A DNA stretch of 64,000 bases from an uncultured Candidatus Saccharibacteria bacterium (GCA_964596875.1 CAZQVT010000001.1:107255-171254); one strand, 5' to 3'; positions 6,065 through 43,262 are shown, numbered from the stretch's first letter. Notes: generated by a model not told the origin, from the sequence alone. Made by a program: numbers and translations.

Positions 6065-7350
6065 AAAACAAGAAATTAAAAAAGAATAAATCTAAATCAC
6101 AAAAGTCTACAAAAAAAGTAGCGAAAAAAGTGGTGAAGACTAAAGTAGCATCAAAGAAACAAAAAAAGATTTCTGTGCCAAAGATTCGTGCAAAAAAGAA
6201 AAACAAATCTTCTTTGGCGATGCGGGCTGCAAAGACGACAACAAAGACTGTAAAGCCTCAGAAAAAAGCTGAAAAGCAAAACGACGGTATGGCGAGACTT
6301 CTTCATAAAGGAAAGGAGAGAGGATATATAACCTATGACGAAATTCTAAAAGAGTTTCCAACTATCGAAGACGATATTTTGTTCCTAGAGGAACTTTATG
6401 AAAAGTTTTCTACAGGAGGCATAGATGTTTTGGAAGGAGGAGGACTTCTGGATGCTGGAAACAACGACGACCTGATAGCTAAAAAGTATACATACGGTAG
6501 AGGAGGCGAGTCTTCATATGACTCTATACAAATGTATCTAAAAGAGATCGGCCAGTACCAGCTTATTTCTGGAGGAATGGAAAAAGAGTTGGCGAAAAGA
6601 ATCGAACAAGGTGATGAAGAAGCAAAAACATTACTTGCTCGTGCGAACCTCCGACTTGTGGTTTCGATTGCTAAAAAATATGCAAACAGAAGTGCAGACC
6701 TAACACTTCTTGATCTTATTCAAGAAGGTAACCTTGGTTTGTTTAAGGCGGTAGATAAGTTTGATTGGACAAAGGGTTACAAGTTTTCTACATATGCAAC
6801 ATGGTGGATACGACAGGCGATAACTCGTGCGCTAGCTGATCAGTCTAGAACTATTCGTGTTCCAGTGCACATGGTAGAAACTATCGCAAAATATAAACAA
6901 GTAGTTCGAAGACTTTCACAGGATTTGGGACGAGATCCTTTGCCAGAAGAAATTGCAGTTGAAATGAATCTTTCAGTGGACAAAGTTTACACTATCGAGA
7001 AAATCGACCAGTCTACACTTTCACTTGAAGCACCGATAGGGGACGAGGGTGATGAAAGTAAAAGTAAACTCGGAGACTTTTTGGCGGATGATAAAATACT
7101 TTCTCCAGATCAGGAGTCTTCAAGAAGAATTGTTTCAGACCAAGTTAGAGAAATACTAAATGACTTGCCAGAAAAAGAAAGAAAGATTCTAGAACTTCGT
7201 CACGGACTTGTGGATGGCGTGACACATACACTAGAAGAAGTAGGAAAGGAGTTTGGAGTTACTCGAGAACGTATCAGACAAATCGAAGCAAAGGCACATG
7301 AAAAGATACGACAGCATGATAAGATAAATAGGTTAAGGAATTACTATTAG
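6061..7350 (+). CDS. rpoD: RNA polymerase sigma-70 factor with unusual Lys-rich N-terminal tail
   Basis: Region 2-4 motifs [40 protein letters not shown] and C-terminal [22 protein letters not shown]. First 75 aa are KKxK-rich ([28 protein letters not shown]...). Confidence 0.9.
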
Positions 7351-7501
7351 AATTTTCGTTTTATATTTTTCATCGCTACCAAAAATCGCCCCAGCGGGCG
7401 ATTTTTGCTGGTCCTCAACCCCTCGTCGTCAAGAACGGGGTGCCTTGACGACACCATGCTCGGGGTCTGCGGAGGCTCTGAAAAAAACAAAACGAAAATT
7501 C
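7350..7501 (+). repeat. TIR element family 2, copy A, carrying an intrinsic terminator hairpin (AAAAATCGCCCCAGCGGGCGATTTTT at 7381-7406)
   Basis: Perfect 12-13 bp TIRs AATTTTCGTTTT (7351-7362) / AAAACGAAAATT (7489-7500). Internal stems CGTCGTCAAG..CTTGACGAC and conserved CCATGCT..CTGCGGAG are shared with copies at 32954-33085, 37024-37131 and 43124-43262. Confidence 0.6.
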
Positions 7502-7560
7502 TAATTTGACAAAATGTAATTTTATGTGCCATAATGTTTGTGGAGAGAAAGGGGCGAGAC

Positions 7561-8160
7561 ATGAACTGGTACCAGTCTGTGAGTGTGGTTCTGGCGCTGG
7601 GACTGTATGTCCCACTTGGTGTACAGATCCTTCAGGGTAAGGTCGTGCAGAACTTGGCGACCTTCATTCTGTGGGGGCTGCTCGATACCATCGCCGGCAC
7701 ATCTCTATACGTTCAGGGTGGCAACTACGGGTTGCCGTTCGCGTACGTTGCGGGGTGCACATTCATCATCGCGTGCATCCTGAAGAAGCGAACCTACAAC
7801 TGGACCAGTTTTGAAACGAAAGTATCGTTTCTGGTCCTCCTGTCCATTGTTGCCTGGATGGTCTCCGGACCCTACATGGCGACAATCTTCTCAACTACCG
7901 GCGTGGTGCTCGCGGGAGTTCCCCAGGTGAAAGATTCCTGGAGAAACCCGAAGCAGTCGCCGATGCTTCTTTACATCGGGTACGCATTCGCAAATCTACT
8001 GTCAACTATCGGCGGCAAGTCGTGGACAGTGGAGGAACGACTGTACTCGTTTGCCTGCTTTCTGCTCGTTCTGGTAGTAGTAGGCGCAACGTCGAGAAAG
8101 TACACTCTGGCATATCGTCGTATGGTGGACGATGCTCGCGAGCTGTGGAGTCTCGACTAA
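7561..8160 (+). CDS. GC-rich polytopic membrane protein, possible PQ-loop/SWEET-like transporter (two repeats, second with VPQVKDSWRNPKQ)
   Basis: About 58% GC against about 35% in flanks. RBS AAAGGGG 6 nt before ATG 7561. Hydrophobic helices throughout. Family assignment is from the motif only. Confidence 0.45.
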   Translation: MNWYQSVSVVLALGLYVPLGVQILQGKVVQNLATFILWGLLDTIAGTSLYVQGGNYGLPFAYVAGCTFIIACILKKRTYNWTSFETKVSFLVLLSIVAWMVSGPYMATIFSTTGVVLAGVPQVKDSWRNPKQSPMLLYIGYAFANLLSTIGGKSWTVEERLYSFACFLLVLVVVGATSRKYTLAYRRMVDDARELWSLD

Positions 8161-8176
8161 CAAACTGCCTGTTCTT

Positions 8177-8217
8177 GGCGGAACCCTTTGGGTTCCGCCA
8201 GAGCACGGCTTTTTTTG
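8177..8217 (+). terminator. intrinsic terminator GGCGGAACCCTTTGGGTTCCGCC..GCACGGCTTTTTTT
   Basis: GC stem-loop plus T-run directly after the 8160 stop. The 3' tail GCACGGCTTTTTTG recurs in the 8971-9010 terminator. Confidence 0.6.
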
Positions 8218-8239
8218 TTATAAAATTTTTTGTGTTAGT

Positions 8240-8500
8240 ATCTGGGGGAAGGGAGGTGGTGTTGGTCAAACGATGCAAGTTTTGTCGGAGTCGCAGGATT
8301 GGCATCCTCGGCAAATACTTTCATTGCCATAGGTGCTTCCGACTTCTACAGCATGTGGACCCTGTAGAGCAGGGAAAGGAGAAGACTGCCGTCGAGGATT
8401 TGATGGCAAGGACCCTGGCGCGTGAAGCCGCAGACCGAATAGTTCACAAGAAGTAACTCTCGTGGTGGGGTCGATATAAGACCCCTGTACGAGTTTTTTG
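8240..8500 (+). ncRNA. candidate small RNA / micro-ORF transcript in GC-rich island (possible 17-aa ORF MARTLAREAADRIVHKK at 8403-8456)
   Basis: Extended -10 like TGtTAGTAT near 8243-8251. Hairpins GAGGATtggcATCCTC, GGCAAatactttcATTGCC and CCCTGtagagCAGGG. Terminator GGGGTCgatataaGACCCC..TTTTTTG at about 8466-8497. Confidence 0.25.
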
Positions 8501-8544
8501 TTTGACAATATTTATTTATATGAGAGATTGAGTCGGGGAGGACT

Positions 8545-8961
8545 ATGCTCGGACTTTACTTGCGTGCGGCGTTTTCTGGCCTGTTCTTTGGGCTGTGGCC
8601 ACTTTTCATGAAGCACAGTGGCATTAAGAGTTCTGCGGTCTCGACGATCTTTCTCGAGGCTGTGGTTCTCGCTGTCGTGCTTCTCTACGGAGGGCGTGAG
8701 TTCTCAACAACCGATCTGTCGGGAACAAAGTGGGTGTACTTGTTCCTGGCTGGTGCGAGTGCGGCGACCGGAGTCCTCGCATTCAACAGTGGACTTGCAG
8801 TTTCAACCGAGTCCACTGTGAGTCTGATTGTTGTGACTGCCATTCTGGTACAGGTGGTGGTGACGGCAGTCTACCAAGGAACTATTGGTGGTGGAATCTC
8901 CGTGACCAAGGCGGTAGGGTTCGCCCTCGCGGGCATTTCAGCCTACATCCTTTCGAGGTAA
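8545..8961 (+). CDS. GC-rich small 4-TM membrane protein, EamA/SMR(ArnE/F)-like
   Basis: 138 aa with four hydrophobic helices. RBS GGGGAGG 3 nt before the ATG. High GC. Confidence 0.4.
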   Translation: MLGLYLRAAFSGLFFGLWPLFMKHSGIKSSAVSTIFLEAVVLAVVLLYGGREFSTTDLSGTKWVYLFLAGASAATGVLAFNSGLAVSTESTVSLIVVTAILVQVVVTAVYQGTIGGGISVTKAVGFALAGISAYILSR

Positions 8962-8970
8962 CGCGTCGTG

Positions 8971-9010
8971 TGTGGCGGGACAAGTGTCCCGCCGGCACGG
9001 CTTTTTTGTT
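8971..9010 (+). terminator. intrinsic terminator GGCGGGACAAGTGTCCCGCC GGCACGGCTTTTTTG
   Basis: Stem-loop plus T-run after the 8961 stop. Paralogous to the 8177 terminator. Confidence 0.65.
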
Positions 9011-9038
9011 ATATAAAATAAAGTGGTATCCTATACCT

Positions 9039-11939
9039 ATGTCAGCGGATATTTTTAAAGAAAAATACAAAGCACTAAATAAGGCACAAAAGGAGGCGGT
9101 AGATGCCATAGAGGAGCCAGTTATGGTCGTGGCAGGTCCTGGAACGGGTAAGACAACTATTTTAACGCTTCATATTGCAAACATACTACTTGAGACACAG
9201 ACAAATCCTGGGGGCATTTTAGCCCTTACTTTTACTGACGCCGGGGTAAAGTCCATGAAAAAGAAATTACGACAGATCATTGGTAGTCGTGCTGATGAGG
9301 TCGCTATACATACTTTTCACTCTTTTGCTGGATCAGTTTTTTCACAGTTTCCAGACCATTTCCCAGAACTTTTTAGAACAAAGCAGATTACAGACATAGA
9401 GGCAGAAAGTATGGTTCGTGAAATACTGCGTTCAGAAAAGTTTGGAAAACTCCGACCTTTCGGAGAACCAGACTACTATGTTGGGAAAATATTAAAAGGT
9501 ATAAGTGATTCCAAAAAAGAAAACCAAACTCCAGAAAGTGTTTCGGACTTTGCAAAACAAGAAATAGAAAGACTAAAAAGTGACCCAGCGTCTATCTCTT
9601 CTCGTGGTCCAACAAAAGGAAAACTAAAAGCAGATGTGAACGGGAAAATAGAAAAATGCGAAAGAACGTTTTTGTTTTCTGAAGTTTTTAGAATTTTTGA
9701 AGAAAAGAAAAAAACTCTAAAACTTTTAGACTACGACGATCTACTTCTGAAACTTTTGGAAGCACTGGATAAAGACACTCAACTTTTGCAGGAACTGCAG
9801 GAAAAGTTTCAGTATGTACACATAGATGAACATCAGGATACCAACGAGTCGCAAAACACTATTGTTATGAAACTGGTGGACTTTTTCGACACCCCAAATA
9901 TTTTTATTGTAGGAGATGAAAAGCAGGCGATATATCGTTTCCAAGGCGCGTCTGTAAAAAACTTTCTGACATTCCAAAACAAATGGAAAAAAATGAAAGT
10001 AGTAAAACTCGAAAGCAACTACCGAAGTCATCAGGCCATACTGGATGCTACTTTTAAAATGATAGAAAACAACTACGAAGAAGGAGAACATAAAGACCTT
10101 CGGGTAAAACTAACAGGAAATGGAAAAGAAAGACCGATAGACCTTGTTACAAGTCCAGATGGTTTTACGCAGGATGAATATATTGTAAAAAGAATAAAAG
10201 AAATACAGAAAGAAGACGGGGATGCGACCGTTGCGGTTATTGTTCGCAAAAACAGAGAAGTCGAACACTTTTTGTCTTTATGTGAAAGAAATGACATAGA
10301 AGCCACAGCAGAAAGAGGTGTAAATATTTTTGAATCACCGGTTGGTACTTTGTATTTTGATATTTTGGAGTACCTAAACGACAGAACAAAAACCGAGGCA
10401 CTGGCGAACACCATCGCACGAGGTTTGTGGGGTATAGATTTTCAAAAGTCAGTTGCACTAATAAACAAAATAAGAAGCACTGATGTAGATATAGAAAATG
10501 AGTTGCCTCAAATAAAAACTATACTAAACGAGATAAATACTGGTGGAGTCATAAACTTTCTCATACTTACGGCAGAACTTTCTGGATATGCTGAAGTCGT
10601 AAAACAAAGTCCAGTTTCGGCGGAAGTGTGGAGGGCGATAGTGGACCTTTCAAAAGACATTGCAGAAGGCGGTTCCATACAAGACCCAAAGATTTTGATA
10701 CAAGAACTTTTGAACTACAGAAAAACTGCAGAGAACAAGTCGATAAAAATCGGTAGTGGAAGTATAAATTCTAAAGTTCAAATAATAACCGCGCACTCTT
10801 CCAAGGGTCTAGAGTATGACTATGTTTTAATGCCAAATGTAACAGAGGAGTCGTGGATGAGTCATAGTTTTGGTAACTCTTTTGTGTTTGCATTTCAAAA
10901 AGAAGAGGGTGATGAGGTAAAGGATTCTCGAAGACTTTTCTATGTGGCGATGACTCGTGCAAAACAGCACGTAGAACTTGTGGTCCCAGAAGAAAACTCT
11001 GGTGGAAGGGAACTTACACCGCTACGCTTTTTGTCAGAACTAGACGCTAAACATATAAAAACAACAAACCTAAAAAGAGTTATGGAAAGACCTTTGGAAC
11101 TTTCTTTGGGATATTTTGACAAAGTGAGAGAAAAAGAAGCTCAAGAGTACACAAAAAGAGTTTTGGTACAAAAGGGACTTTCTGTAACAGCATTGAACCA
11201 TTTTCTAGATTGTCCTAGAGGATTTTTCTACAAGAGTATTCTAAAGATTCCAGAAGCACCTAGTGTTTCGTCCGAAAGGGGTATTGCAATGCACAAAGCA
11301 CTTTCACTAGTTTGGAGAGAGGAAAAAAGAAAGGCTTCGGATATAGAAAGAACTATAGTTTCTGTCACGGACGAGTATTTCAAAAAGTCTTTGTTGCCAA
11401 AGTTTGAAAAAGAAATAGTAATGGAGGAAATAAAGTCGTATGCAAAAGTCGTTGCAGTTGAACTGGAAAGTTATTTTGCTTTTGCAGGACAAACCTTTTT
11501 GGAAAAATGGGAAGAAAAAGAACACACTGTAAGGTTTGAAAATGAAGAAGTTACTTTTAACCTGCATGGTCAGCTGGATGCGATACTTGTAGATGACGAC
11601 TACGCTAGGATTTATGACTACAAAACCACCGAGGTAAAAAGCATAGCAAGCATAAAAGGGGAGACAAAAAGTTCGGATGGAAACTATTTTAGACAACTAG
11701 TTTTCTACAAGTTCCTATTACAAGGAAACGCAAACTACAAAGGCAAGGTGATAGAACCAGCACTGATTTTCGTAAAACCAAACGCGGGCGGTAAGTGTCC
11801 AACCGTTGTAATCCCTATAGAAGAAAACGATATAGAAAATATAAAAAATGAAATACAGAGTTTGGTGGAGTCGGTTTGGTCCGGAGAGTTTCTGAAAACT
11901 AGGTGCGACGACAAAAATTGTAAGTATTGCAAGATATAA
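9039..11939 (+). CDS. UvrD/PcrA-family SF1 helicase fused to a C-terminal Cas4/AddB-type PD-(D/E)XK nuclease with Fe-S cysteines
   Basis: Walker A VVAGPGTGKTT and motif II HIDEHQDTN. C-terminal nuclease LDAILVDDDYARIYDYKTTE, with Cys in FLDCPRGFF plus RCDDKNCKYC, a 1+3 Cys pattern like AddB/Cas4. The ORF track start 8730 is rejected because it overlaps the upstream gene and terminator. Confidence 0.8.
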   Translation: MSADIFKEKYKALNKAQKEAVDAIEEPVMVVAGPGTGKTTILTLHIANILLETQTNPGGILALTFTDAGVKSMKKKLRQIIGSRADEVAIHTFHSFAGSVFSQFPDHFPELFRTKQITDIEAESMVREILRSEKFGKLRPFGEPDYYVGKILKGISDSKKENQTPESVSDFAKQEIERLKSDPASISSRGPTKGKLKADVNGKIEKCERTFLFSEVFRIFEEKKKTLKLLDYDDLLLKLLEALDKDTQLLQELQEKFQYVHIDEHQDTNESQNTIVMKLVDFFDTPNIFIVGDEKQAIYRFQGASVKNFLTFQNKWKKMKVVKLESNYRSHQAILDATFKMIENNYEEGEHKDLRVKLTGNGKERPIDLVTSPDGFTQDEYIVKRIKEIQKEDGDATVAVIVRKNREVEHFLSLCERNDIEATAERGVNIFESPVGTLYFDILEYLNDRTKTEALANTIARGLWGIDFQKSVALINKIRSTDVDIENELPQIKTILNEINTGGVINFLILTAELSGYAEVVKQSPVSAEVWRAIVDLSKDIAEGGSIQDPKILIQELLNYRKTAENKSIKIGSGSINSKVQIITAHSSKGLEYDYVLMPNVTEESWMSHSFGNSFVFAFQKEEGDEVKDSRRLFYVAMTRAKQHVELVVPEENSGGRELTPLRFLSELDAKHIKTTNLKRVMERPLELSLGYFDKVREKEAQEYTKRVLVQKGLSVTALNHFLDCPRGFFYKSILKIPEAPSVSSERGIAMHKALSLVWREEKRKASDIERTIVSVTDEYFKKSLLPKFEKEIVMEEIKSYAKVVAVELESYFAFAGQTFLEKWEEKEHTVRFENEEVTFNLHGQLDAILVDDDYARIYDYKTTEVKSIASIKGETKSSDGNYFRQLVFYKFLLQGNANYKGKVIEPALIFVKPNAGGKCPTVVIPIEENDIENIKNEIQSLVESVWSGEFLKTRCDDKNCKYCKI

Positions 11940-11973
11940 AATAAAACCCCTTTCCGGGTTTTATTTTTCAGAA

Positions 11974-12678
11974 TTATTTACTGTATAGCAATGCGTCTAT
12001 GATATTTTTTACACTTTCGTAAGGTTGTGCACCTTGTACTACTGTTTTTGTTCCATCCTTTGAAACAATGATAGAGTTTGGAGTTCCTCTTCCTCCTGCT
12101 TTTACAGCATCATCGTAGTCTGCCTGAACTTTGTCGGCGTATTTGCCACTAGATAGACAAGTGTTAAATGCTTTTACATCCAGACCAATATCTTTTGCGA
12201 TTTTTGGAAGTTCTGACTCTGGTAGAGAGTTGTTTGAGTTTGTTCTAGCGTAAACAGTGTTTAGGTATTCCCAGAACTTTGTTGCGCCACCCAACTCGTT
12301 TGCACATTCTGTTGCTTCTGCTTCTTTACGAGCTTTTGGGTGTAGTTGGTCGATAGGGAAATGTCGATAAACCCAAGCAACTTTTCCATCTTTGCCGTAC
12401 TCGTCCATCATTTGTCGTAGTGTTGTGTGGAATTGTTTACAGAAAGGACACTCGGTATCAGAGTATTCTACAAACATAAGTTCTGCATTTGGATTTCCTA
12501 GGATGTGGTCTGCTTCTGTGATAGGTCGCATTTCTTCACCACCAGAAACCATTTGTGGAACAGTTTTTGCTTTCACTATTTCCTTTGCGTTTTGTAAGTT
12601 TGAATAATAAAAAGCCCCCGCTATTAAACCTCCCGCTATAACTATTGCCAATGGCACCGATAATTTTTCCATATTCAT
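11974..12678 (-). CDS. thiol:disulfide oxidoreductase, DsbA/thioredoxin-like with N-terminal membrane anchor
   Basis: CPFCKQFH active site (CxxC) and N-terminal TM helix. Confidence 0.75.
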   Translation of the reverse strand: MNMEKLSVPLAIVIAGGLIAGAFYYSNLQNAKEIVKAKTVPQMVSGGEEMRPITEADHILGNPNAELMFVEYSDTECPFCKQFHTTLRQMMDEYGKDGKVAWVYRHFPIDQLHPKARKEAEATECANELGGATKFWEYLNTVYARTNSNNSLPESELPKIAKDIGLDVKAFNTCLSSGKYADKVQADYDDAVKAGGRGTPNSIIVSKDGTKTVVQGAQPYESVKNIIDALLYSK

Positions 12679-12882
12679 CCCGTTTGAAATAGGAGATCGT
12701 TATGTATTTGCGACTCCTAATGTTGTAGTTAAACTTAACTGAAAATTTATAAATATTGATCTCCGTATATTTCTTACGGGATTCATATGAAGACATTCTA
12801 CTATGTAAGTCCGTGGTGTGCAATTTATAAAAATGGTGCTAAGATTAAATGGGCAGTTCGTTTGCCTCTCCGAGGAGGGTGC

Positions 12883-12975: not shown

Positions 12976-13131
12976 GACCCTCTGGCGGGTCTAGTCTCTC
13001 CCTAACACAGAGAGGAGGGTAGACTATCGGAATGAGTCTCTGAGGGGGCAACCAGTACGTGTGTCGGCCAAAACACCTGGGAAGGGGGAGGACAGCAACT
13101 CTCCCGACCTGGGTTAACAAAGGATTCTCAT

Positions 13132-13194: not shown

Positions 13195-13211
13195 TCGCGT
13201 TCGTCGCGACT

Positions 13212-13825: not shown

Positions 13826-13945
13826 GAACTGATAAATTTGAGTTCAGTTCTAGGCGGACGAGAAAAATGCGAGAAGCCTTACTAATAGTAAGGTGACGAG
13901 AATTTTTTGAAGTCCAACAACGAAATGAGCCAAATTTATAAGTTC
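13826..13945 (-). repeat. MITE/REP-like element family 1, copy R3 (inverted orientation), TIRs GAACTGATAAATTT / AAATTTATAAGTTC
   Basis: Reverse complement carries TTCAAAAAATTCTCGTCACCTTACTATTAGTAAGGCTTCTCGCATTT, matching the R1/R2 core. 13 of 14 bp in the TIR pair. Confidence 0.6.
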
Positions 13946-31921: not shown

Positions 31922-32935
31922 ATGTCATTTTTCTCTAAAAAAATCGGTATCGACCTTGGAACCGCCAACACTTTGGTGTTTGTTCCGGGTAGGGGGATAG
32001 TCCTAAATGAGCCATCTGTTGTCGCTGTTTCTGAAGAAGACAACAAAATCGTAGCAATTGGTATAGAGGCAAAAGAAATGATAGGCCGTACTCCTGATAA
32101 TATTATTGCCTATAGACCAATGAAGGATGGAGTTATAGCGGACTACCGCGTGACTGAAGCCATGCTTCGATACTATATAGACAAAGCCTTGGGTAAATGG
32201 AGTTTTTGGAAACCAGAGGTTCTAGTTTCCGTTCCAGCAGGAGTTACATCTACTGAAAGACGTGCTGTGATAGAGGCCGCGATACGTGCCGGAGCAAAAA
32301 ATGCATACGTTATAAAGGAACCTATTTTGGCTGCAATTGGTGCGGGTATTCCTATTCATGAAGCAAAAGGCCATATGATAGTGGATATCGGGGGAGGTAC
32401 AACCGATGTTGCTGTTATCTCGCTTGGCGGTATTGTCGCATCAACTTCTGTAAAATGTGCCGGAAATAAAATTGACTATGCAATTGCGGACTATATCAAA
32501 AAAACTTTTAACCTCGGTATAGGAGACAAAACGGCAGAAGATATAAAAATAAAAATCGGTTCTGCAATACCACTAGACGAGGAACTCGCGATAACTATAA
32601 AGGGACGTGACTTTGTTACAGGACTTCCACGAAGTGTAGAAATAAAAACAAATGAAATAGTAAAAGCATTGAGTAAGGATTTGCGCGAGATGATAAAAGC
32701 AATAAAGGATGTGTTGCAAGAAACTCCACCAGAACTTTCTTCGGATATTATAGATCAAGGGATTATTATGACAGGAGGAACTTCACAACTACGAAACTTT
32801 CCTGAACTTGTTTTGAGGCGTACTGGTGTGAAGGCTGTTTTGGCAAAAGATGCGTTGTACTGCGTTGTAAAAGGTACAGGAATTGCACTAGAACACCTTG
32901 ATAACTACAAAAAATCTGTGATTTCCAAGAGATAG
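31922..32935 (+). CDS. mreB: rod shape-determining protein MreB (paralog 1)
   Basis: IGIDLGTANTLVFVPGRGIVLNEPSVVAV and DIGGGTTDVAVISLGG actin-fold motifs. Confidence 0.9.
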   Translation: MSFFSKKIGIDLGTANTLVFVPGRGIVLNEPSVVAVSEEDNKIVAIGIEAKEMIGRTPDNIIAYRPMKDGVIADYRVTEAMLRYYIDKALGKWSFWKPEVLVSVPAGVTSTERRAVIEAAIRAGAKNAYVIKEPILAAIGAGIPIHEAKGHMIVDIGGGTTDVAVISLGGIVASTSVKCAGNKIDYAIADYIKKTFNLGIGDKTAEDIKIKIGSAIPLDEELAITIKGRDFVTGLPRSVEIKTNEIVKALSKDLREMIKAIKDVLQETPPELSSDIIDQGIIMTGGTSQLRNFPELVLRRTGVKAVLAKDALYCVVKGTGIALEHLDNYKKSVISKR

Positions 32936-32953
32936 AAAATTTTCTTTTTCCCC

Positions 32954-33085
32954 ACAATCTTTTCAGAGCGAGCTTTAAAAATTCCAGCGAATTTTTAAAG
33001 CCTGGTCCTCGGCCTCCATCCGTCAAGAAGGGGCGCCTTGACGGAGCCATGCTGGAGGCACTGCGGAGTCTCAGAAAAGATTGTG
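32954..33085 (+). repeat. TIR element family 2, copy B
   Basis: TIRs CACAATCTTTTCAGAG / CTCAGAAAAGATTGTG. Hairpin TTAAAAATTCCAGCGAATTTTTAA. Stems CCGTCAAG..CTTGACGG and GCCTCC..GGAGGC. CCATGCT..CTGCGGAGTC. Confidence 0.6.
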
Positions 33086-33123
33086 AGTCAACGAAAATTT
33101 AGGTATTTGATATAATAGTAGAT

Positions 33124-33795
33124 ATGCACTCATTTTTAGAAATGTACAAAAACTCGGATAGTCTGCACCACGCATACTATTTTGTTGAACACAAACTTGA
33201 GGAGGGGGTAAAAAAACTTAAAGATTTTCTAGAGGAAAAGTTGGGTGTGAAAACTGTAGGTAACCCAGATTTTTCTCATAGAAAGTATGAGAACTTTTCT
33301 ATAGATGATGCAAGACTTTTGAATCAGGGGGAAATGCTTAGGAATTTTTCTGGCGGTAAAAAGATTTTTATTATTGAGACTGACTTTATAACCGAGGAAG
33401 CTCAGAACGCGTTACTTAAAGTTTTTGAAGAGCCAACAGAGGGAACTCATTTTTTCATAATTTCACCACAAGAAGTTTTACTTCCAACTTTGCGCTCAAG
33501 AATGCATGTATTTGCAAATTCTGAGTCTGAAACACTCATGTCAAAGAGTCTCTTTGACATGAGTTTGAAAGATAGGCTCGAAGTGGTAAAAGAGATTACC
33601 GAAGGAATAAAAGATGATGAAAAAACAAAACAGGATGCGATTTCTTTTTTAAACAGTATTGAAAAAGAACTGTATGAAGATGGAGTTTTGAAGAATGCTG
33701 AAAAACTGAAGGTTTGTGAAATGACGAGAGAAGCATTGTACGACCGTGGTGCTCCAGTAAAGATTATTTTGGAGAATCTAGTCATCTCTATTTAG
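33124..33795 (+). CDS. holB: DNA polymerase III delta' subunit-like (short)
   Basis: Sensor and box motifs ...FIIETDFITEEAQNALLKVFEEP..HFFIIS..LPTLRSRMHVF. Confidence 0.65.
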   Translation: MHSFLEMYKNSDSLHHAYYFVEHKLEEGVKKLKDFLEEKLGVKTVGNPDFSHRKYENFSIDDARLLNQGEMLRNFSGGKKIFIIETDFITEEAQNALLKVFEEPTEGTHFFIISPQEVLLPTLRSRMHVFANSESETLMSKSLFDMSLKDRLEVVKEITEGIKDDEKTKQDAISFLNSIEKELYEDGVLKNAEKLKVCEMTREALYDRGAPVKIILENLVISI

Positions 33796-35755: not shown

Positions 35756-37000
35756 ATGAAACAAACACAACTTTTTACAAAAACACGCAAGGAGGCACCA
35801 GCAGATGAGGCTTCAAAAAACGCCCAACTTTTAATACGCGGAGGTTATGTCCACAAAGAACTCGCTGGCGTTTACTCGTATTTACCTTTAGGTCTTAGAA
35901 CACTAAATAAGATTGTTGCAGTAATTCGTGATGAAATGAACAAGATAGGTGGTCAGGAGTTGCTTATGTCTGCACTTCAAGATAAAGAACTTTGGTCACG
36001 AACAGACAGATGGGACGATGCAAAAGTAGACAACTGGTTTAAAACAGAACTTAAAAGTGGTGGAGAAACTGGTCTTGGTATTACACATGAAGAACCACTA
36101 ACTCGTATCATGAGTGAGCATGTTTCGTCTTATAGAGATTTACCGAAACTTGCTTATCAGTTTCAAAACAAGTTTAGAAATGAACTTAGAGCAAAGTCGG
36201 GTATTATGCGAGGAAAGGAGTTTATGATGAAAGACATGTATTCTTTCTCTAGAGATTATGATGCTCACAATATGGATTATGACAAAATACGTGGTGCTTA
36301 TATTAAAATCTTTGAACGCCTAGGTCTTGGTGATAAAACATATGTAACATACGCAGATGGGGGAATCTTTGCAGATTTTTCTGAGGAATTTCAAACTCTA
36401 ACAGAATCAGGTGAAGATATTGTATATGTACACGAGGGTAAAAAAATTGCTGTAAACAAAGAGGTATATACGGACGAAAGTCTTGCAAAACTCGGTGTGT
36501 CAAAGGATGAGTTGGTTGAAAGAAAGGCTGTAGAAGTCGGTAATATTTTTCATCTTGGTACAAGATTTTCTGATGCGATCGGTTTGAAATACAAAGACGA
36601 GGACGGTAGTGAAAAATCTGTTGTGATGGGTAGTTATGGAATCGGTCCAACTAGAGTTATGGGTACAATCGTCGAAGTTTTATCGGATGAAAAAGGAATA
36701 GTTTGGCCAAAAGAAGTCGCACCGTTTGCTATACACCTTGTTCGCCTAGGTGTAAATGATGCAACAGTAAAATATGCTGATGACTTGTATGAAAAACTAA
36801 AACAAAATGGCGTAGAAGTTCTTTACGACGATAGAGACTTGCGACCAGGAGAAAAGTTTGCCGACTCTGACCTTATTGGTATACCTGTTCGTTTTGTTGT
36901 AAGTGACAAAACTGTCGCCGAAGACAAAGTTGAAGTAAAAATGCGAACAGAATCAGATTCAAAACTTGTGAGTGTAGATGAGGCCTTGAAATTAATTTAA
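35756..37000 (+). CDS. proS: prolyl-tRNA synthetase
   Basis: MKQTQLFTKTRKEAPADEASKNAQLLIRGGYVHK start and class II motifs. The track start 35627 is rejected because it reads through the terminator. Confidence 0.85.
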   Translation: MKQTQLFTKTRKEAPADEASKNAQLLIRGGYVHKELAGVYSYLPLGLRTLNKIVAVIRDEMNKIGGQELLMSALQDKELWSRTDRWDDAKVDNWFKTELKSGGETGLGITHEEPLTRIMSEHVSSYRDLPKLAYQFQNKFRNELRAKSGIMRGKEFMMKDMYSFSRDYDAHNMDYDKIRGAYIKIFERLGLGDKTYVTYADGGIFADFSEEFQTLTESGEDIVYVHEGKKIAVNKEVYTDESLAKLGVSKDELVERKAVEVGNIFHLGTRFSDAIGLKYKDEDGSEKSVVMGSYGIGPTRVMGTIVEVLSDEKGIVWPKEVAPFAIHLVRLGVNDATVKYADDLYEKLKQNGVEVLYDDRDLRPGEKFADSDLIGIPVRFVVSDKTVAEDKVEVKMRTESDSKLVSVDEALKLI

Positions 37001-37023
37001 AAAAATTTCTTTCTCCTCATAAT

Positions 37024-37131
37024 TTTTTATCGCAACCTTAAAAACTCCAGCGAGTTTTTAAGGCCAGTCCTCGGCCAAAGTCGTCAAGATGGAGTGCCTT
37101 GACGACACCATGCTTTTGGCCTGCGGGGGCG
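37024..37131 (+). repeat. TIR element family 2, copy C
   Basis: Hairpin TTAAAAACTCCAGCGAGTTTTTAA. Stems GTCGTCAAG..CTTGACGAC and GGCCAAA..TTTGGCC, the latter covarying with GCCTCC/GGAGGC in copy B. CCATGCT..CTGCGGGGGCGCT. Confidence 0.6.
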
Positions 37132-37166
37132 CTAAAAAACCATGAGTCGACGAGATTTTTTTAATT

Positions 37167-38246
37167 GTGTTAGTATGTCTAAAAATGATTAAAAACCTGG
37201 AACAATTTAAACGATACATTTCCAATGATATTGGGATAGACTTGGGTACGGCAAACACCCTCGTTTATTTGTCTGGTAAGGGTATTGTTCTAAACGAACC
37301 GTCTGTTGTGGCTATAAACCAGAAAACTGGTCAGGTTGTGGCGGTGGGTAGGGATGCGAAACAAATGCTGGGTAGAACTCCGCAACATATTGTGGCTGTG
37401 CGACCTTTGGTAGATGGTGTGATTTCTGACTTTGAGGTAACAGAAGAAATGATTACATATCTTTTAAACAAGGCGCAGAAAGGTAACACAAAACTTTTGG
37501 GTCCTCGCGTTGTTGTGGGTGTACCATCTGGCATAACAAACGTAGAAATACGCGCGGTACGTGACGCGACAAAAAACGCCGGAGCGTCAGAAGTGCATAT
37601 TGTAGAAGAACCAATGGCCGCTGCTATAGGTATGCGACTTCCTGTTATGGACCCAAGTGGAACCATGATTATAGATATAGGTGGAGGAACTACAGATATT
37701 GCTGTGATTTCTCTAGGTGGAGTTGTTCGAAGTAAAAATTTGAAGATTGCTGGGGATAAACTAAACAACGATATTATTTCGTACATGCGAAGCGAGTTTA
37801 AAATCCTTGTTGGTGAAAAAACTGCAGAAGAAATAAAAATAGCGATTGGCGCAATAATGCCAGGGGATGAACCACTAGAGGCAAGTGTAAAGGGTCGTGA
37901 CCTTATTACGGGACTTCCTCGTGAGGTTATAATAACTGACTCTGATATTCGTGAAGCGATTTCGCAGTCGATAAATACTTTGGTAGATGCGGTAAAAGAA
38001 GTTTTGGAAACAACACCACCAGAAGTTTTGTCAGACATTATGCAAAAGGGCATTTTCCTCGCTGGTGGCGGAGCACTTATAGTTGGTCTGGCTGAAATAA
38101 TCTCGGAATACACAAAAATACCAGTACACATTGCTCCAGATCCTCTGACTGCAGTTTGTCGTGGTACTGGTATAATTTTGGAAAACCTAGAAACATACAA
38201 AGATGTACTAATAACAAACAAAGATGAACTTCCTCCTAAAAAGTAA
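37167..38246 (+). CDS. mreB: rod shape-determining protein MreB (paralog 2), first gene of mreBCD-mrdA
   Basis: IGIDLGTANTLVYLSGKGIVLNEPSVVAI. Alternative start 37185. Confidence 0.9.
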   Translation: MLVCLKMIKNLEQFKRYISNDIGIDLGTANTLVYLSGKGIVLNEPSVVAINQKTGQVVAVGRDAKQMLGRTPQHIVAVRPLVDGVISDFEVTEEMITYLLNKAQKGNTKLLGPRVVVGVPSGITNVEIRAVRDATKNAGASEVHIVEEPMAAAIGMRLPVMDPSGTMIIDIGGGTTDIAVISLGGVVRSKNLKIAGDKLNNDIISYMRSEFKILVGEKTAEEIKIAIGAIMPGDEPLEASVKGRDLITGLPREVIITDSDIREAISQSINTLVDAVKEVLETTPPEVLSDIMQKGIFLAGGGALIVGLAEIISEYTKIPVHIAPDPLTAVCRGTGIILENLETYKDVLITNKDELPPKK

Positions 38247-39012
38247 ACCAAAAAGAAACTTCGATCCTAAAATAGTTACTGTAGTTGTAGTTTTTTTGGT
38301 ACTTATGCTCGCGTCTTTTTTGTTCCCATCTTTCCTACGAAATTCTTCACAACTTTTTATGCGACCATTTTGGGCTTTTAAGGAAAAAACGTATGGGACT
38401 TTTTCTTTTGCGTGGGACTTCATATCGTTTAAAAGTTCTCTAATAAAGGAAAATGAACTTTTGAAAGACGAAGTTGGACGACTTCGCTTAACAAAAATCG
38501 ACTACGATACTTTGTTCAAAGAAAATGAAGAACTAAAAGCGATGGTCGCGATGAAAAAAAGTTCTATGCGCGCTATCGCAAATATTTTGTCGAAACCACC
38601 ACAGTCGCCATTCGACACACTGGTTCTCTCTAGTGGAAAAGACGCTGGTCTAGAAGTGGGCAACAAGGTTTACATTTCAGACAGTATTATTATAGGTACA
38701 GTTTCAGATGTATTAAACGAAACTTCTGTTGCCAGACTTTATTCTGCGCCTGGAGAAAAAAGTGAAGTGGTTTTGTCACGAACTGGACAGTCTTTTGTGA
38801 TAGAGGGTAGTGGTGGAGAAAACTTTACTTTGGAAGTACCAAAGGATACAGATATTTTATGGGGTGACTCGCTGGTTTTACAGGGCAGTAGTGATTTTGT
38901 TTTGGCTACTGTGTATTTTGTGGACAGTAGTTCTCAGAGTTCATTTAAAACGGTTCATATGCGGGTCCCAGTCAGTTTGTATCAGGTCAAAAGAGTCTTC
39001 ATAGGCAACTAG
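38224..39012 (+). CDS. mreC: rod shape-determining protein MreC
   Basis: N-terminal TM, coiled coil and C-terminal beta domain. Position after mreB. Confidence 0.7.
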   Translation: MNFLLKSKPKRNFDPKIVTVVVVFLVLMLASFLFPSFLRNSSQLFMRPFWAFKEKTYGTFSFAWDFISFKSSLIKENELLKDEVGRLRLTKIDYDTLFKENEELKAMVAMKKSSMRAIANILSKPPQSPFDTLVLSSGKDAGLEVGNKVYISDSIIIGTVSDVLNETSVARLYSAPGEKSEVVLSRTGQSFVIEGSGGENFTLEVPKDTDILWGDSLVLQGSSDFVLATVYFVDSSSQSSFKTVHMRVPVSLYQVKRVFIGN

Positions 39013-39036
39013 TCTTGTATTTGTTAGAATACGGTT

Positions 39037-39291
39037 ATGAATACAACAACAGTCAGATTGCTTTTGTTTGTAACAGTTTTTCTTTCTATTATATTTTTGC
39101 CATGGTGGCTTTCGCTTTTAGTTATGGTTGCTTTAGCATTTTATTTCCCGCTGTATATCGAAATAATCTTTTTCGGTTTCATTTTCGACAGTTTGTTTTT
39201 GTCTTCATATAAGTTCCCATACGCATCACTTATTGCTACCGCGGTTATCCTTGTGCTCATACTAAGTATTAGAAGGCATATTAGAAAATAA
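39037..39291 (+). CDS. mreD: small membrane protein, possible MreD
   Basis: 84 aa, hydrophobic, sits between mreC and the PBP2 gene. Confidence 0.35.
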   Translation: MNTTTVRLLLFVTVFLSIIFLPWWLSLLVMVALAFYFPLYIEIIFFGFIFDSLFLSSYKFPYASLIATAVILVLILSIRRHIRK

Positions 39292-39305
39292 TACTTTATG
39301 GACGT

Positions 39306-41018
39306 ATGTTTTCTAATCTCAAAAAACTTTTAAGAAAGAATACTCTCAGCGTACAAAAATCTATTGACCCAGATGAGATTTTTATTGACTCTCAAAATTT
39401 ACCAAACTTTGATAAACATCAGTTTGAAGGACGTATAGAAAAACCAATTTCTTTTAAGGTTTTTAGTTTTTTAGGGTTATTTCTTCTTTTAGTTTCAGGT
39501 ATATTTATATATCGACTTTGGAACCTACAGATAAACCAAGGTGAAAAGTTTAGACTGAGAAGTGACAACAACAACCTGCATAACATCGTAATTTTTGCTG
39601 ACAGAGGAGTGATTTTTGACAGAAACAAAGTTCCAATAGTTTGGAACAAGGTAAATGAGGCCAACAATGATTTTTCATTGCGAGAGTATGCTACATCTAC
39701 TGGTCTTTCGACTACACTAGGTTATGTAAAATATCCGACAAAAGACTCATCTGGTTTTTATTATCAAGATAAGTTTGACCCAAAAGATGGAATGGAAAAA
39801 ATCTATAACGAAGAAATATCTGGTATCGATGGTATTAGGACAATCGAAACCGATGTAAAAGGTAACGTAGTTTCAGAAAGTGTTGTGCAGTCGCCAAAAG
39901 ATGGAAATAACTTAGACCTTTCTATAGATATAAGACTTCAGAGAAAACTTTATAGTTCAATGCTTGAAATTGCTGACAGAGCCGGTTACAGAGGAGGTGC
40001 CGGAGTAATAATGAATATTGGTACGGGAGAAATAATAGCAAGTAGTAACTTTCCAGAATACGACTCTCAAACACTTTCTTTGGGAAAGGATACAGAAAAA
40101 ATAAAAGGCTGGCTAAATAGTAGTAACCACCCATTTCTAAATAGAGTTATAGACGGTCTGTACACTCCGGGTTCTATCATGAAGGTTTTTGTGGCTATGG
40201 GGGTTTTGGATAAAAAAGTTATTGACCCAAGAACTCAGATATTGAGTACTGGTTCGATACAAGTTCCGAACCCATTTTTCCCAGACAAACCTTCTACATT
40301 TATGGACTGGAAAGCGCACGGCCTGGTTGATCTAAGAAGGGCTTTGGCGGTTTCATCAAACGTGTATTTTTATGAAGTTGGTGGTGGGTACAAAGGCCAA
40401 AAAGGTATTGGTATAGAAAATATAGAAAAGTATTCTAGACTATTTGGTTTTGGAAGTACTACAGGAATATATTTCCCAGGTGAAAACTCGGGAACTATCC
40501 CTAGTCCTTCATGGAAACTCAAAACTTTTAATGGTGAAGCTTGGAGAGTAGGAGATACATATAACACTGCTATTGGTCAGTATGGATACCAGGTATCTCC
40601 GATACAAGTTGTGCGTGCATATGGTGGCATAGCAAGTGAAGGAACTCTTGTTACTCCGACATTTATGAAAATAGATAATCCAAACAGTGTAAAGAAAGAA
40701 AAAGTGGCGCAGGAGTTTGACCCGAATTACTACAAAATAATAAAAGAAGGAATGCGAATGTGTGTTACGGAGGGAACTTGTCAGGCAATGAACTTTCCAT
40801 TTATAGAAGTCGCGGGAAAAACTGGTACAGCGCAGATTGGAGTAAATAAAGACGAGGTAAACTCCTGGGTAGTTGGTTTTTGGCCATACAAAAACCCTAA
40901 ATATGCTTTTGCGATAGTAATGGAACGAGCTTCAAAAACAAACCAGTTCGGGTCCGTTTTGGTGATGCAGTCTTTTCTGGACTGGGTTCACCTGTATGCA
41001 AGTGAGTACTTGGAATAG
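39306..41018 (+). CDS. mrdA: penicillin-binding protein 2 (peptidoglycan transpeptidase)
   Basis: N-terminal TM, SxxK (GSIMK) and KTGTA motifs. Confidence 0.8.
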   Translation: MFSNLKKLLRKNTLSVQKSIDPDEIFIDSQNLPNFDKHQFEGRIEKPISFKVFSFLGLFLLLVSGIFIYRLWNLQINQGEKFRLRSDNNNLHNIVIFADRGVIFDRNKVPIVWNKVNEANNDFSLREYATSTGLSTTLGYVKYPTKDSSGFYYQDKFDPKDGMEKIYNEEISGIDGIRTIETDVKGNVVSESVVQSPKDGNNLDLSIDIRLQRKLYSSMLEIADRAGYRGGAGVIMNIGTGEIIASSNFPEYDSQTLSLGKDTEKIKGWLNSSNHPFLNRVIDGLYTPGSIMKVFVAMGVLDKKVIDPRTQILSTGSIQVPNPFFPDKPSTFMDWKAHGLVDLRRALAVSSNVYFYEVGGGYKGQKGIGIENIEKYSRLFGFGSTTGIYFPGENSGTIPSPSWKLKTFNGEAWRVGDTYNTAIGQYGYQVSPIQVVRAYGGIASEGTLVTPTFMKIDNPNSVKKEKVAQEFDPNYYKIIKEGMRMCVTEGTCQAMNFPFIEVAGKTGTAQIGVNKDEVNSWVVGFWPYKNPKYAFAIVMERASKTNQFGSVLVMQSFLDWVHLYASEYLE

Positions 41019-41125
41019 TTTCGTATTTTGCCTAAATTCTGAAATTTTGGGGTAAAAAGGTTAGGTTGACCGGAGGGTGTTTTTTTGCTATATTTTCACT
41101 TACTTATTTTTAATTTTCACAATAA

Positions 41126-41584
41126 ATGAAAGAAAAAGAATATCTGACAAAAGAAAAATTCGACGAATTTACAGCCGAACTAGCCGAACTAAAAGGCAAG
41201 AGAAGAAAAGAGGTTGCTGAGTCTTTGGAGTATGCAAAATCTCTAGGGGATTTGGCTGAAAATGCAGAATACCATGAGGCAAGAGATGCTCAGGCTACTA
41301 TTGAAGACAGAATTGCAAGACTAGAGGAGTTGCTAAAACATGCACACATTGTTTCTGGAAACAGTACTGATGCAGTTTCTGTTGGTTCAAAAATAACTGT
41401 AGAAAAGGATGGTAAAAAGTTTGAGTACAGTATCGTCGGTTCAGAAGAGGCAGATGTTATTTCAAACAAGATCTCTATGAAGTCTCCGTTCGGACAAGCG
41501 ATCCTTGGAAAGAAAAAAGGTGACAGTTTTACTTTTAAAGCGCCTTCAGGTGAGATTACATACAAGATTGTTTCTATTCAATAA
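41126..41584 (+). CDS. greA: transcription elongation factor GreA
   Basis: GDLAENAEYHEARDAQA coiled-coil tip and C-terminal FKBP-like domain. Confidence 0.9.
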   Translation: MKEKEYLTKEKFDEFTAELAELKGKRRKEVAESLEYAKSLGDLAENAEYHEARDAQATIEDRIARLEELLKHAHIVSGNSTDAVSVGSKITVEKDGKKFEYSIVGSEEADVISNKISMKSPFGQAILGKKKGDSFTFKAPSGEITYKIVSIQ

Positions 41585-41645
41585 GGAATCAAAAAGGACC
41601 CTTCAGGGTCTTTTTTGATTTAGGAAATAGTGCTATATTTACTAT

Positions 41646-43109
41646 ATGGCAGGACTAGACGAAATACGTGAAGGCAGACTTCACAAACTAAATATATTAA
41701 AAGAAAGAGGCATTAACCCTTTTCCAGCACAAGTACCTAGGGATTTTACTATTAAGTTTCTAAAGGATAATTTTGACGCTCAAAGTACAGCCGGCGCAGA
41801 TATTTCTGTGGCGGGTAGAGTAATGGCTTTGCGTGGGCAAGGAGCAATACTTTTTGCTGTTCTTTTTGATGGAACAGAAAAGGTTCAGGCTATTGTGAAA
41901 AAAGATACTTTGGGTGAAGACGCTTTTGGACTTTTTAGAGACGCTGTAGATGTTGGGGATTTTATTTCAGTAACAGGTGCCGCCATTCTTTCTAAAACAG
42001 GGGAGCAGAGTATAGACACAAAAGTTTGGACAATGGCAACTAAAACATTGTTGCCAATGCCGGAAAAATGGCATGGTCTACAAGATATAGACGAAAGATA
42101 TCGAAAGCGATACTTGGATTTCCTTATGAACGACGAGTTGCGAGACCTCATGGTAAAGAAAGCAAAGTTTTGGGATGCTACTAGAACTTTTATGAAGCAA
42201 AATGACTTTCTCGAAGTTGAAACACCTACTATTGAAACAACAACCGGTGGTGCAGAAGCAAACCCATTTAAAACTCATCATGACGACTATGACATGGATG
42301 TTTATTTCCGTATTTCAGTAGGAGAGTTGTGGCAAAAGAGACTTATGTCTGCAGGTTTCCCTAGAACTTTTGAAGTCGGAAGAGTTTACAGAAACGAGGG
42401 TTCTAGTCCAGACCATACCCAAGAGTTTACCAACATGGAGTTTTACGCTTCATTTATGACATATGAAGAGGGCATAAACTTTACGGAGGAACTTATAAAA
42501 TACGTAGCCCAAGAGTCTTTTGGTAAAACAGAGTTTTCAACTAGAGGACATACATTTAATCTTGCTGGAACATGGGACAGAAAGTCATACGTTGAAATAG
42601 TAAAAGAAAAAACTGGTGTAGATGTTATTTCTGCTACAAGTGACGAAATGAAAGATAAACTAGATGAACTAAAAGTAAAATACGAAGGAGATAATAAGGA
42701 AAGACTTACAGATACACTTTGGAAATACTGCCGAAAACAAATCTCTGGTCCTGTATGGATAACAAATGTTCCAAAAATCGTTTCTCCTTTGGCGAAAGCA
42801 AATGTTGAAAACAACGATCTGACACTACGTGTGCAACTAGTTTTGGCAGGCGCCGAAGTCACAAACGGTTTTGCCGAACTAAACGACCCAATAGATCAGA
42901 AAGAAAGATTTGATCTGCAGAAAAAACTTCTAGAAGGTGGAGACAAGGAAGCAATGATGTCAGATGACGAGTTTGTAGAAATGCTAGAACACGGCATGCC
43001 TCCGACTTTTGGTTTTGGAATGGGAGGGGATAGAATTTTCTCATTTTTTGCGGATAAACCGCTACGAGAACTTCAGATGTTTCCTTTAATGAGACCGAAG
43101 GTCGAATAA
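41646..43109 (+). CDS. lysS: lysyl-tRNA synthetase (class II)
   Basis: OB-fold N-domain, FLEVETP, RNEG and GGDR class II motifs. Confidence 0.9.
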   Translation: MAGLDEIREGRLHKLNILKERGINPFPAQVPRDFTIKFLKDNFDAQSTAGADISVAGRVMALRGQGAILFAVLFDGTEKVQAIVKKDTLGEDAFGLFRDAVDVGDFISVTGAAILSKTGEQSIDTKVWTMATKTLLPMPEKWHGLQDIDERYRKRYLDFLMNDELRDLMVKKAKFWDATRTFMKQNDFLEVETPTIETTTGGAEANPFKTHHDDYDMDVYFRISVGELWQKRLMSAGFPRTFEVGRVYRNEGSSPDHTQEFTNMEFYASFMTYEEGINFTEELIKYVAQESFGKTEFSTRGHTFNLAGTWDRKSYVEIVKEKTGVDVISATSDEMKDKLDELKVKYEGDNKERLTDTLWKYCRKQISGPVWITNVPKIVSPLAKANVENNDLTLRVQLVLAGAEVTNGFAELNDPIDQKERFDLQKKLLEGGDKEAMMSDDEFVEMLEHGMPPTFGFGMGGDRIFSFFADKPLRELQMFPLMRPKVE

Positions 43110-43123
43110 ATCTCTTACTCACA

Positions 43124-43262
43124 TATCTTTTCTCCAGACCGCTCGCTTTTCCTGCGAAAAACTCACTTTGTCCTCAGTCGCAATTTGTCAATGAACCGAG
43201 ATTACTCGGACTTTGACAAAACCATGCTTGCTCCCTGCGGAGTCTTGCGAAAAGATCTGTCC
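43124..43262 (+). repeat. TIR element family 2, copy D (divergent)
   Basis: GTCCTCAGTCGCAATTTGTCAATG..CTTTGACAAAACCATGCTTGCTCCCTGCGGAGTC. The inner stem TTTGTCAA/TTGACAAA covaries with GTCGTCAAG/CTTGACGAC in the other copies. Confidence 0.5.

Follow-up and report, generated by a model that had tools for sequence, protein, structure and literature searches.

A covarying palindromic repeat gained and lost at gene junctions in Patescibacteria

A 64,000-nucleotide (nt) stretch of DNA from an uncultured Candidatus Saccharibacteria bacterium (GCA_964596875.1 CAZQVT010000001.1:107255-171254; here called the window, with positions counted from its first letter) contains four copies, A to D, of a repeat situated at gene boundaries. 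The repeats share a covarying fold, turn over at gene junctions by gain, loss, replacement, and inversion, lie in their main orientation with the 5′ end at the stop codon of the upstream gene, and have outward promoter-like sites at their 3′ ends. On balance, the four copies are probably lineage-specific, noncoding, and nonautonomous mobile repeats that resemble miniature inverted-repeat transposable elements (MITEs) and serve as portable gene-boundary modules. An initial annotation of the window, made from the sequence alone, had described them as terminal inverted repeat elements carrying an intrinsic terminator and had argued for a functional structured RNA rather than a MITE.

We read and aligned the four sites directly and ran a covariance model (R1) across the whole window with filters off. 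The four matching copies proved to be real, as the model recovered exactly these sites (106 to 115 bits; E values of ~1e-26 to 1e-28); the next-best score in the 64 kb was 16 bits, and no further copy was found on either strand. For the wider family, we scanned one genome per species for the exact motifs and obtained 108 stretches, which we treated as 108 loci. The model matched 97 of these, with 114 matches in total, and 12 further matches came from 49 syntenic metagenome loci that we fetched, giving a family of ~130 copies. The 97 matched loci derive from 41 assemblies labeled Zambryskibacteria, Paceibacterota, Minisyncoccia, Parcubacteria, or "Saccharibacteria"; one short-contig bin among the carriers is labeled Nitrospira. 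The remaining 11 of the 108 loci, all from other phyla, had no model match and were dismissed as chance or coding matches, and a viral origin was likewise dismissed when the single pattern match in IMG/VR was rejected by the covariance model. The elements are noncoding and about 135 to 230 nt long, typically ~160 nt. Four lie in the 64-kb window, as many as four were found within 8 kb (L086), and assemblies have several each; carriers have one ~160-nt element per 10 to 16 kb, at junctions where the genes of relatives overlap. Rfam, searched with the window at the gathering threshold, gave only two tRNAs, and raising the E value to 10 gave no relevant family (the best subthreshold match over copy A was RNAI, which scored 23.7 bits where the threshold is 47). 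A full-text literature search found no description of these elements. The family is previously undescribed and confined to Zambryskibacteria/Paceibacterota-type Patescibacteria.

A covarying fold with turnover at orthologous junctions

To follow individual sites, we sorted the genes on either side of the elements into families and set orthologous pairs side by side, adding the 49 syntenic metagenome loci. Many orthologous junctions are filled by an element in one genome and measure −11 to +20 nt in others, and the junctions that gain or lose the element are compact in more distant relatives, with overlapping or adjacent genes. At the mreB-holB junction, the window (copy B) and the relatives L111 and L112 have three different subtypes with the same boundaries. 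The closest relative, L143, has in copy B's place a member of a second repeat family (core TCGTCACCTTACTA..TAAGGCTTCTCG), and the two genes overlap in distant relatives. The proS-mreB2 junction carries an element in the window (copy C), L111, and L117, a related repeat (family Y, below) in L143, and a remnant in L113, and the proS-site element is inverted in L085. None of sites B, C, and D is occupied by the element in L143. The mreB-site copy of L112 is 93.5% identical to the proS-site copy of the window, and in one assembly, the similarity between two copies (L067 and L009) runs exactly from AAAATCTC to GAGATTTT, with unrelated sequence on both sides. Such variation in occupancy, subtype, and orientation between orthologous junctions is the behavior of mobile elements, which goes against the initial preference for a functional RNA over a MITE.

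The element is one long imperfect palindrome, in which an outer stem of up to ~30 bp (P1) encloses an asymmetric three-way junction. The terminal inverted repeats of the initial annotation correspond to P1, the termini of which are often AAAATCTC...GAGATTTT. One arm of the junction is a hairpin (P2) with a C-N-G-C loop; the other (Pa-P3-P4) has a bulge of the form ACC(A/G)(T/A)GCT. The motif GTCCTC(G) comes next after P2 and is followed by P3, a stem of 6 to 7 bp that differs in sequence from copy to copy and always pairs. The inner stem P4 ends in GTCAA/TTGAC and has a short or an extended apex. In the four window copies, the unpaired bulge ACCATGCT is followed by the 3′ half of P3 and then by CTGCGG(A/G). 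The motifs listed earlier for these copies (GTCCTC, CCATGCT, CTGCGG, and an inner stem of GTCAA/TTGAC) were found at all four sites.

A second, variable stem had been said to covary between the copies, and in the alignment of the four, P3 does so. With a covariance model built and the family searched beyond the window, the covariation holds in a larger alignment of 113 copies. Core positions are paired in 96.6% of cells (76.6% in shuffles). The covariation score reaches 0.571, compared to 0.184 in shuffles and ≤0.125 when the partners are slid; compensatory changes occur in 16 of 25 pairs. By these values, the copies are a genuine family whose single-strand fold is conserved and covaries; this fold ranks among the better-supported covarying structures absent from Rfam. 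Covariation is strong in P2, P3, and P4, and P1 is 97 to 98% Watson-Crick over ~3,000 pairs. In the 21 copies found by the model alone, the motifs vary to CC(A/G)(T/A)GCT and CTG(C/T)GG, and GTCCTC is retained in 18. Apart from the base of the stem and AATCTC...GAGATT, the outer arms vary in sequence between copies. L026 and L005, two copies in a single assembly, have a common interior and different outermost stems, each of them self-complementary.

Several further repeats share the scaffold or the neighborhood of the element. In two different assemblies, an extra palindrome (TTAAGGTCTGGCCTT...AAGGCCAGACCTT) is nested in the apical loop of P4 (L091, 5963-6170; L102, 5652-5854); it is a third small palindromic repeat that either inserts into this loop or is tolerated there. 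Family Y shares its outer stem and termini with the element studied here and has a shorter core (..CTTCGCGCTCAC..GG(N)TCCGCGATG..), and was seen in L143 (11022-11146), L028 (6283-6425), L021 (~1960-2090), L089 (~5810-5940), and L091 (~3830-3950). Bare outer hairpins without a core occur in L073 (~3415-3440) and L028 (7096-7160). The sequences suggest that the studied element, family Y, and the bare hairpins form a superfamily built on one scaffold. The second repeat family of the window, with the core TCGTCACCTTACTA..TAAGGCTTCTCG, is presumably what the initial annotation called the first terminal inverted repeat family; its copies lie at 4177-4277 (+), 48083-48183 (+), 13865-13944 (−), and 59249-59328 (−).

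Gene boundaries in the family and in the window

Using a simple call of genes from open reading frames, we classified 98 copies by orientation. Between tandem genes, 55 copies are sense and 20 are antisense (P of ~1e-4 by a normal approximation), 17 copies lie between convergent genes, and 6 lie between divergent genes. The orientation bias relative to upstream genes is therefore confirmed, whereas the uniformity that had been claimed for it is not, since 27% of the 75 tandem copies are antisense. With a family-wide frequency of ~75%, the shared orientation of all four copies in the window is uninformative. The bias in position is also real. For 75 of 100 elements, what lies next to the 5′ end is a stop codon, with a median gap of 3 nt; the 5′ end lies ≤5 nt from the upstream stop in 46 of these 75, and the stop is inside P1 in 31. 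The 3′ end is followed by either a start codon (median distance, 44 nt) or a convergent stop (median distance, 78 nt). GC skew is positive throughout the window. That replication direction sets the orientation was considered and rejected, as the local GC skew runs against antisense copies as well (mean, −0.043; positive in 5 of 19). Orientation therefore goes with genes and skew jointly, and one cannot be separated from the other.

The 3′ arm carries a −35-like TC(A/G)ACG box, and an outward extended −10 lies 16 to 18 nt on, at or just past the element boundary. Of 102 copies, 40 have an outward extended −10 motif (TGn-TAnnnT); these motifs peak sharply 0 to 9 nt past the 3′ end, and no such peak appears in the other three combinations of flank and strand. 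For a reverse-strand or internal promoter, there was no positional signal, with 17 of the 102 copies having a reverse-strand motif somewhere in the flank. An outward promoter-like site follows all four window copies and, judging by these motifs, probably explains the orientation bias.

In the window, the genes upstream of the copies are, as annotated, those for sigma-70, MreB, a ProS-like protein (a class II aminoacyl-tRNA synthetase with an HGTP anticodon domain), and a LysS-like protein (a class IIb synthetase). The sites themselves had been placed correctly, but each element is longer than first delimited. The upstream stop codon is inside the outer stem in copies A, C, and D, and the stem of copy B begins one base after it.

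Copy A spans 7346-7505 (+; R1 score, 110.8 bits). Its terminal repeats had been called perfect, and this is borne out by a 17-bp P1 without mismatch (7346-7362 paired with 7489-7505), which includes the rpoD stop codon TAG at 7348-7350. The P2 hairpin lies at 7381-7406 (loop CAGC), GTCCTC at 7411-7416, P3 at 7417-7422 paired with 7461-7466, and P4 at 7423-7433 paired with 7444-7452; the bulge ACCATGCT follows at 7453-7460 and CTGCGGAGG at 7467-7475, so that CCATGCT starts at 7454 and CTGCGG at 7467. The promoter-like site behind it (7506-7535, +) reads TTGACA-18-CATAAT with a TG and has 11 of 12 matches.

Copy B spans 32937-33100 (+; 106.4 bits), starting one base past the mreB stop TAG (32933-32935), with GTCCTC at 33005-33010, CCATGCT at 33047-33053, and CTGCGG at 33061-33066. 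The −35-like TCAACG of its 3′ arm (33088-33093, +) is followed at 17 nt by TATAAT (33111-33116, +), which stands 7 nt before the ATG (33124) of a holB-like gene. We infer that TATAAT is the −10 of an outward hybrid promoter that would produce a leaderless mRNA; the same layout is repeated in L111 and L112. Copy C spans 36997-37164 (+; 115.1 bits), and its P1 includes the proS-like stop TAA at 36998-37000. GTCCTC is at 37067-37072, CCATGCT at 37108-37114, CTGCGG at 37121-37126, and the 3′-arm box TCGACG at 37147-37152 (+); the extended −10 TGtTAGTAT (37168-37176, +) lies 18 nt past this box and 8 nt before the ATG (37185) of a second MreB paralogue. Orthologous TGTGGTAGACT sites occur in L077, L097, and L111. 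The two MreB paralogues are 4 kb apart, at 31922-32935 (with copy B at the 3′ end) and 37167-38246 (with copy C at the 5′ side). Boxes of the form T(G/A)TGn-TAnnnT just 6 to 8 nt before a start codon, seen in the window (33111-33126 and 37171-37187) and in L111, L112, L077, and L097, imply leaderless mRNAs for several genes of the lineage.

Copy D spans 43105-43275 (+; 107.7 bits). In its outer pairing, AATAAATCTC at 43105-43114, which contains the lysS-like stop TAA (43107-43109), pairs with GATATTTATT at 43266-43275, and the continuous stem runs over 43121-43260. GTCCTC lies at 43170-43175, an extended P4 at 43184-43220, CCATGCT at 43222-43228, and CTGCGG at 43235-43240. The promoter-like site that follows (43283-43311, +; TTTACA-17-TATCGT with a TG) precedes a GC-rich stretch of ~290 nt that ends in a terminator at 43577-43595, the whole region covering 43283-43600. 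This stretch has a weak match to the signal recognition particle (SRP) RNA clan (Plant_SRP; E = 0.003; 18 bits) and is probably a divergent SRP RNA or other noncoding RNA. At the lysS junction of L143, there is no aligned counterpart of this stretch or of the amidase gene at 43695-44453; lysS is followed there by 143 nt and then by a gene matching the window at 44544.

Directly 3′ of ~18 copies, for example, in L008 (789-800), L108, L091, L061, L034, L057, and L026, stands the motif (C/T)T(A)AGTGGTGAT, which is present in nearly every copy of assembly CAIOTC01 and only partially fits an extended −10. It is often followed by ~20 nt and then the terminator of a convergent gene. We considered whether the motif TTAGTGGTGAT could be the conserved C terminus of a convergent gene and rejected this after reading the sequences by eye, as the reading frames are inconsistent.

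The intrinsic terminator of the initial annotation does not hold as a family feature. Its 5′ hairpin, P2, is terminator-like in copy A only; in copies B and C the stem is almost entirely A-T, and copy D has no T-run. A scan with a terminator consensus flagged none of the four window copies, P2 is without a following T-run in most members, and we therefore rejected P2 as a terminator at the family level. The hairpin formed by the whole element is very stable (mean, ~−72 kcal/mol). At 41597-41610, the window has an ordinary hairpin-plus-T terminator where L112, L045, and L104 carry the element.

Strand preference and competing explanations

To ask which strand folds, we counted isolated mismatches in P1. 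On the plus strand, A·C mismatches outnumber G·U pairs by 50 to 10, over 45 distinct sequence contexts. Split by gene context under a looser, two-neighbor criterion, the A·C and G·U counts are 32 and 10 in sense copies, 8 and 1 in antisense copies, 8 and 2 between convergent genes, and 5 and 1 between divergent genes. The bias is the same in every class, which makes it a property of the element rather than of host transcription or replication. Selection to weaken a hairpin in the mRNA strand was rejected as its cause, since the A·C excess should then reverse in antisense copies and does not. Mutation bias was rejected because the same excess occurs in copies of opposite orientation relative to genes and GC skew; by our own reasoning, the positive GC skew of the plus strand would predict the opposite excess. 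By minimum free energy, the reverse strand is the more stable for P1 in 83 of 93 copies (mean, −5.4 kcal/mol), for the P2 region in 89 of 93, and for the core in 66 of 93. Read from the sequences, pyrimidine mismatches of the plus strand become tandem G·A pairs on the reverse strand. Wobble counts in P2, P3, and P4 are neutral (19 versus 27). The better-folding reverse strand is the strand of negative GC skew in ~71% of copies.

Our favored explanation, that the copies are MITE-like mobile repeats acting as gene-boundary modules, would tie these properties together. A long hairpin with T-rich ends would impede transcription arriving from either direction, and the outward promoter would restart it for the downstream gene. 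With selection acting on the consequences of insertion, such a role would leave about three-quarters of the surviving tandem-gene insertions in the sense orientation. Passage through a single-stranded form, as the element is copied or moved, would be what maintains the covarying fold. More tentatively, the family may represent mobile DNA recognized by its shape, in which a single-stranded three-way-junction hairpin is copied or moved by a Patescibacteria enzyme without target duplication, with complementary flanks made or extended at each site; ultrasmall genomes may have domesticated it as a terminator-plus-promoter boundary that splits operons. This version is a conjecture to which we give considerably less weight.

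A number of observations weigh against the favored explanation. A fixed target-site duplication was not seen, the longest flanking direct repeat averaging 3.30 nt compared to 3.06 nt after permutation; L067 and L009 have no flank repeat in common, and a 2-bp TA duplication would be masked by the palindromic ends. In a search for an autonomous partner, with a gene between the same ends, no end pairs 0.3 to 3 kb apart exceeded background in ~0.8 Mb of loci. The outer stem is conserved far more in structure than in sequence and has copy-specific complementary extensions outside the shared termini, which sets the arms apart from the transposase-bound terminal repeats found in classical MITEs. The search pattern itself is partly responsible for the invariance of GTCAA, TTGAC, CCATGCT, and CTGCGG. 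T-runs of ≥4 at the outer end of the element occur in 38% of copies on the plus strand and 41% on the reverse strand, the −35-like box matches the consensus at just 3 to 4 of 6 positions, and termination and promoter activity are both deduced from sequence alone. The strand evidence is, moreover, split. P1 and the internal loops favor the reverse strand, and Pa (UCCUCG/UGCGGR) favors the forward strand, with 136 G·U cells on the plus strand that become C·A on the reverse strand; Pa never covaries, and it may therefore not be a helix.

The explanation put forward initially, in which the plus strand works as a 3′ untranslated region (3′-UTR) RNA (a cis terminator, a 3′-end stabilizer, or a 3′-UTR small RNA) and is multicopy by chance, draws on the closeness of the 5′ end to the stop codon (46 of 75), the 55:20 sense bias, the strong covariation of P2, P3, and P4, the G·U pairs that keep Pa paired (136 cells, with none on the reverse strand), and the ordinary terminator found in the window where relatives have an element. 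It nevertheless fits the strand data worst of all. In a functional plus-strand RNA, G·U pairs would not be expected to be five times rarer than A·C mismatches in the outer stem, nor would this bias persist (8 to 1) in antisense copies, where the plus strand is not in the mRNA, and all modules are more stable on the other strand. Added to this, P2 is mostly no terminator and only ~40% of copies have T-runs at their ends, 27% of the tandem copies are antisense, and turnover at orthologous sites is unexpected for a conserved regulatory RNA. We consider this explanation unlikely. The converse, that the reverse strand is functional, either as an independently transcribed structured RNA with a three-way junction and tandem G·A internal loops or through spread by an RNA or single-stranded DNA copy, would accommodate the stability of P1, the P2 region, and the core, the preference for G·U over A·C in P1 whatever the gene context, and the conversion of pyrimidine mismatches into tandem G·A pairs. 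Against it stand the absence of any promoter-like motif positioned for this strand, the C·A mismatches that Pa would have in most copies, and the lack of a clear wobble preference in P2, P3, and P4; such a transcript would also be antisense to both neighbors in 73% of tandem contexts. We find it less credible again.

Apparent compensation could also stem from DNA mechanics. Template switching during replication can correct and extend quasipalindromes in situ, and a selfish or neutral palindrome without structural function might be kept complementary in this way, as the perfectly complementary, copy-specific extensions, the differing self-complementary outer stems of L026 and L005, and the almost fully Watson-Crick P1 would suggest. 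Correction of this kind does not explain why unpaired GTCCTC, ACC..GCT, and the C-N-G-C loop persist in copies outside the search pattern, why the junction is asymmetric across 41 assemblies, or why the strand bias of A·C and G·U is intrinsic to the element, and we rate it the least probable account. The split strand signal makes the family a test case, as covariation alone cannot tell an RNA, a single-stranded DNA intermediate, and palindrome mechanics apart. Patescibacteria genomes are ~1 Mb in size and have almost no spare DNA. If the element does block and restart transcription, it would amount to a mobile rewiring of operon structure in a major uncultivated lineage and would also be a ready marker of strain-level variation. 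Gene callers and RNA-motif screens applied to these genomes should mask the family.

Comparison with known elements

The family shares with MITEs that it is short, noncoding, multicopy, and intergenic, that its ends are inverted repeats (complementary over up to ~30 bp and variable in sequence), and that it is polymorphic for presence at orthologous sites; it departs from them in showing no target-site duplication of fixed length. Repetitive extragenic palindromes (REP/BIME) are G+C-rich palindromes of ~35 bp with a 5′ GTAG, associated with a Y1 transposase (RAYT), whereas the present element is five times longer, with A+T-rich arms and no GTAG at its ends. Members of IS200/IS605 have subterminal hairpins rather than terminal inverted repeats, insert 3′ of a fixed tetranucleotide, and have their active strand on the lagging-strand template. 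Here, there is long terminal complementarity, and the better-folding strand lies mostly on the negative-skew strand (~71%), the opposite of what IS200/IS605 would predict. Integron attC sites, which belong with other sites recognized as folded single strands, are imperfect palindromes conserved in structure over sequence, with short termini, a variable middle, and one reactive strand, and they are found at gene 3′ ends, mostly in one orientation. The elements described here differ from attC sites in being dispersed rather than arrayed, in lacking terminal boxes of the GTTRRRY type, and in having a conserved three-way junction interior, and an integrase context was not seen around them.

The bcr1 elements (group A repeats of the Bacillus cereus group) are ~155 bp long, noncoding, and multicopy, with a distribution that is not conserved between close strains (PMC3184786). 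Compensatory changes keep them in a cruciform-like fold with two independent stem-loops, they are flanked by 5-bp direct repeats, and they have been shown to be transcribed (PMC3184786). The present family has the same size and the same turnover, and its covarying fold likewise places two arms inside an outer stem. In contrast, it has no direct repeats and a host of another phylum, and neither adjacency to stop codons nor an outward promoter has been reported for bcr1. Compared by description rather than by sequence, the element appears to resemble bcr1 in kind without being a member.

Correia elements have sequence-conserved terminal repeats of 26 bp and a TA duplication, whereas here it is the structure of the arms that is conserved, a duplication is not evident, and covarying stems form an asymmetric three-way junction in the interior. 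In Neisseria, these elements (CREE/nemis) are intergenic MITEs of 104 to 157 bp with terminal inverted repeats and a long hairpin (PMC3184786). Their functional outward promoters transcribe adjacent DNA and not the element, and their position differs between close strains (PMC3184786). SPRITE, a repeat of ~105 bp with a terminator-like fold and a bias to gene 3′ ends (PMC3184786), matches the mobile terminator suggested in the initial annotation. SPRITE favors convergent gene pairs, however, whereas 75 of the 98 classified copies here lie between tandem genes, and the canonical G+C-rich stem with a T-run is not a feature of this family. By these comparisons, bcr1, Correia, and SPRITE elements appear to be the closest in kind, and the present family is set apart from all three by its ends without direct repeats, its structure-conserved arms, its conserved asymmetric junction core, and its host phylum.

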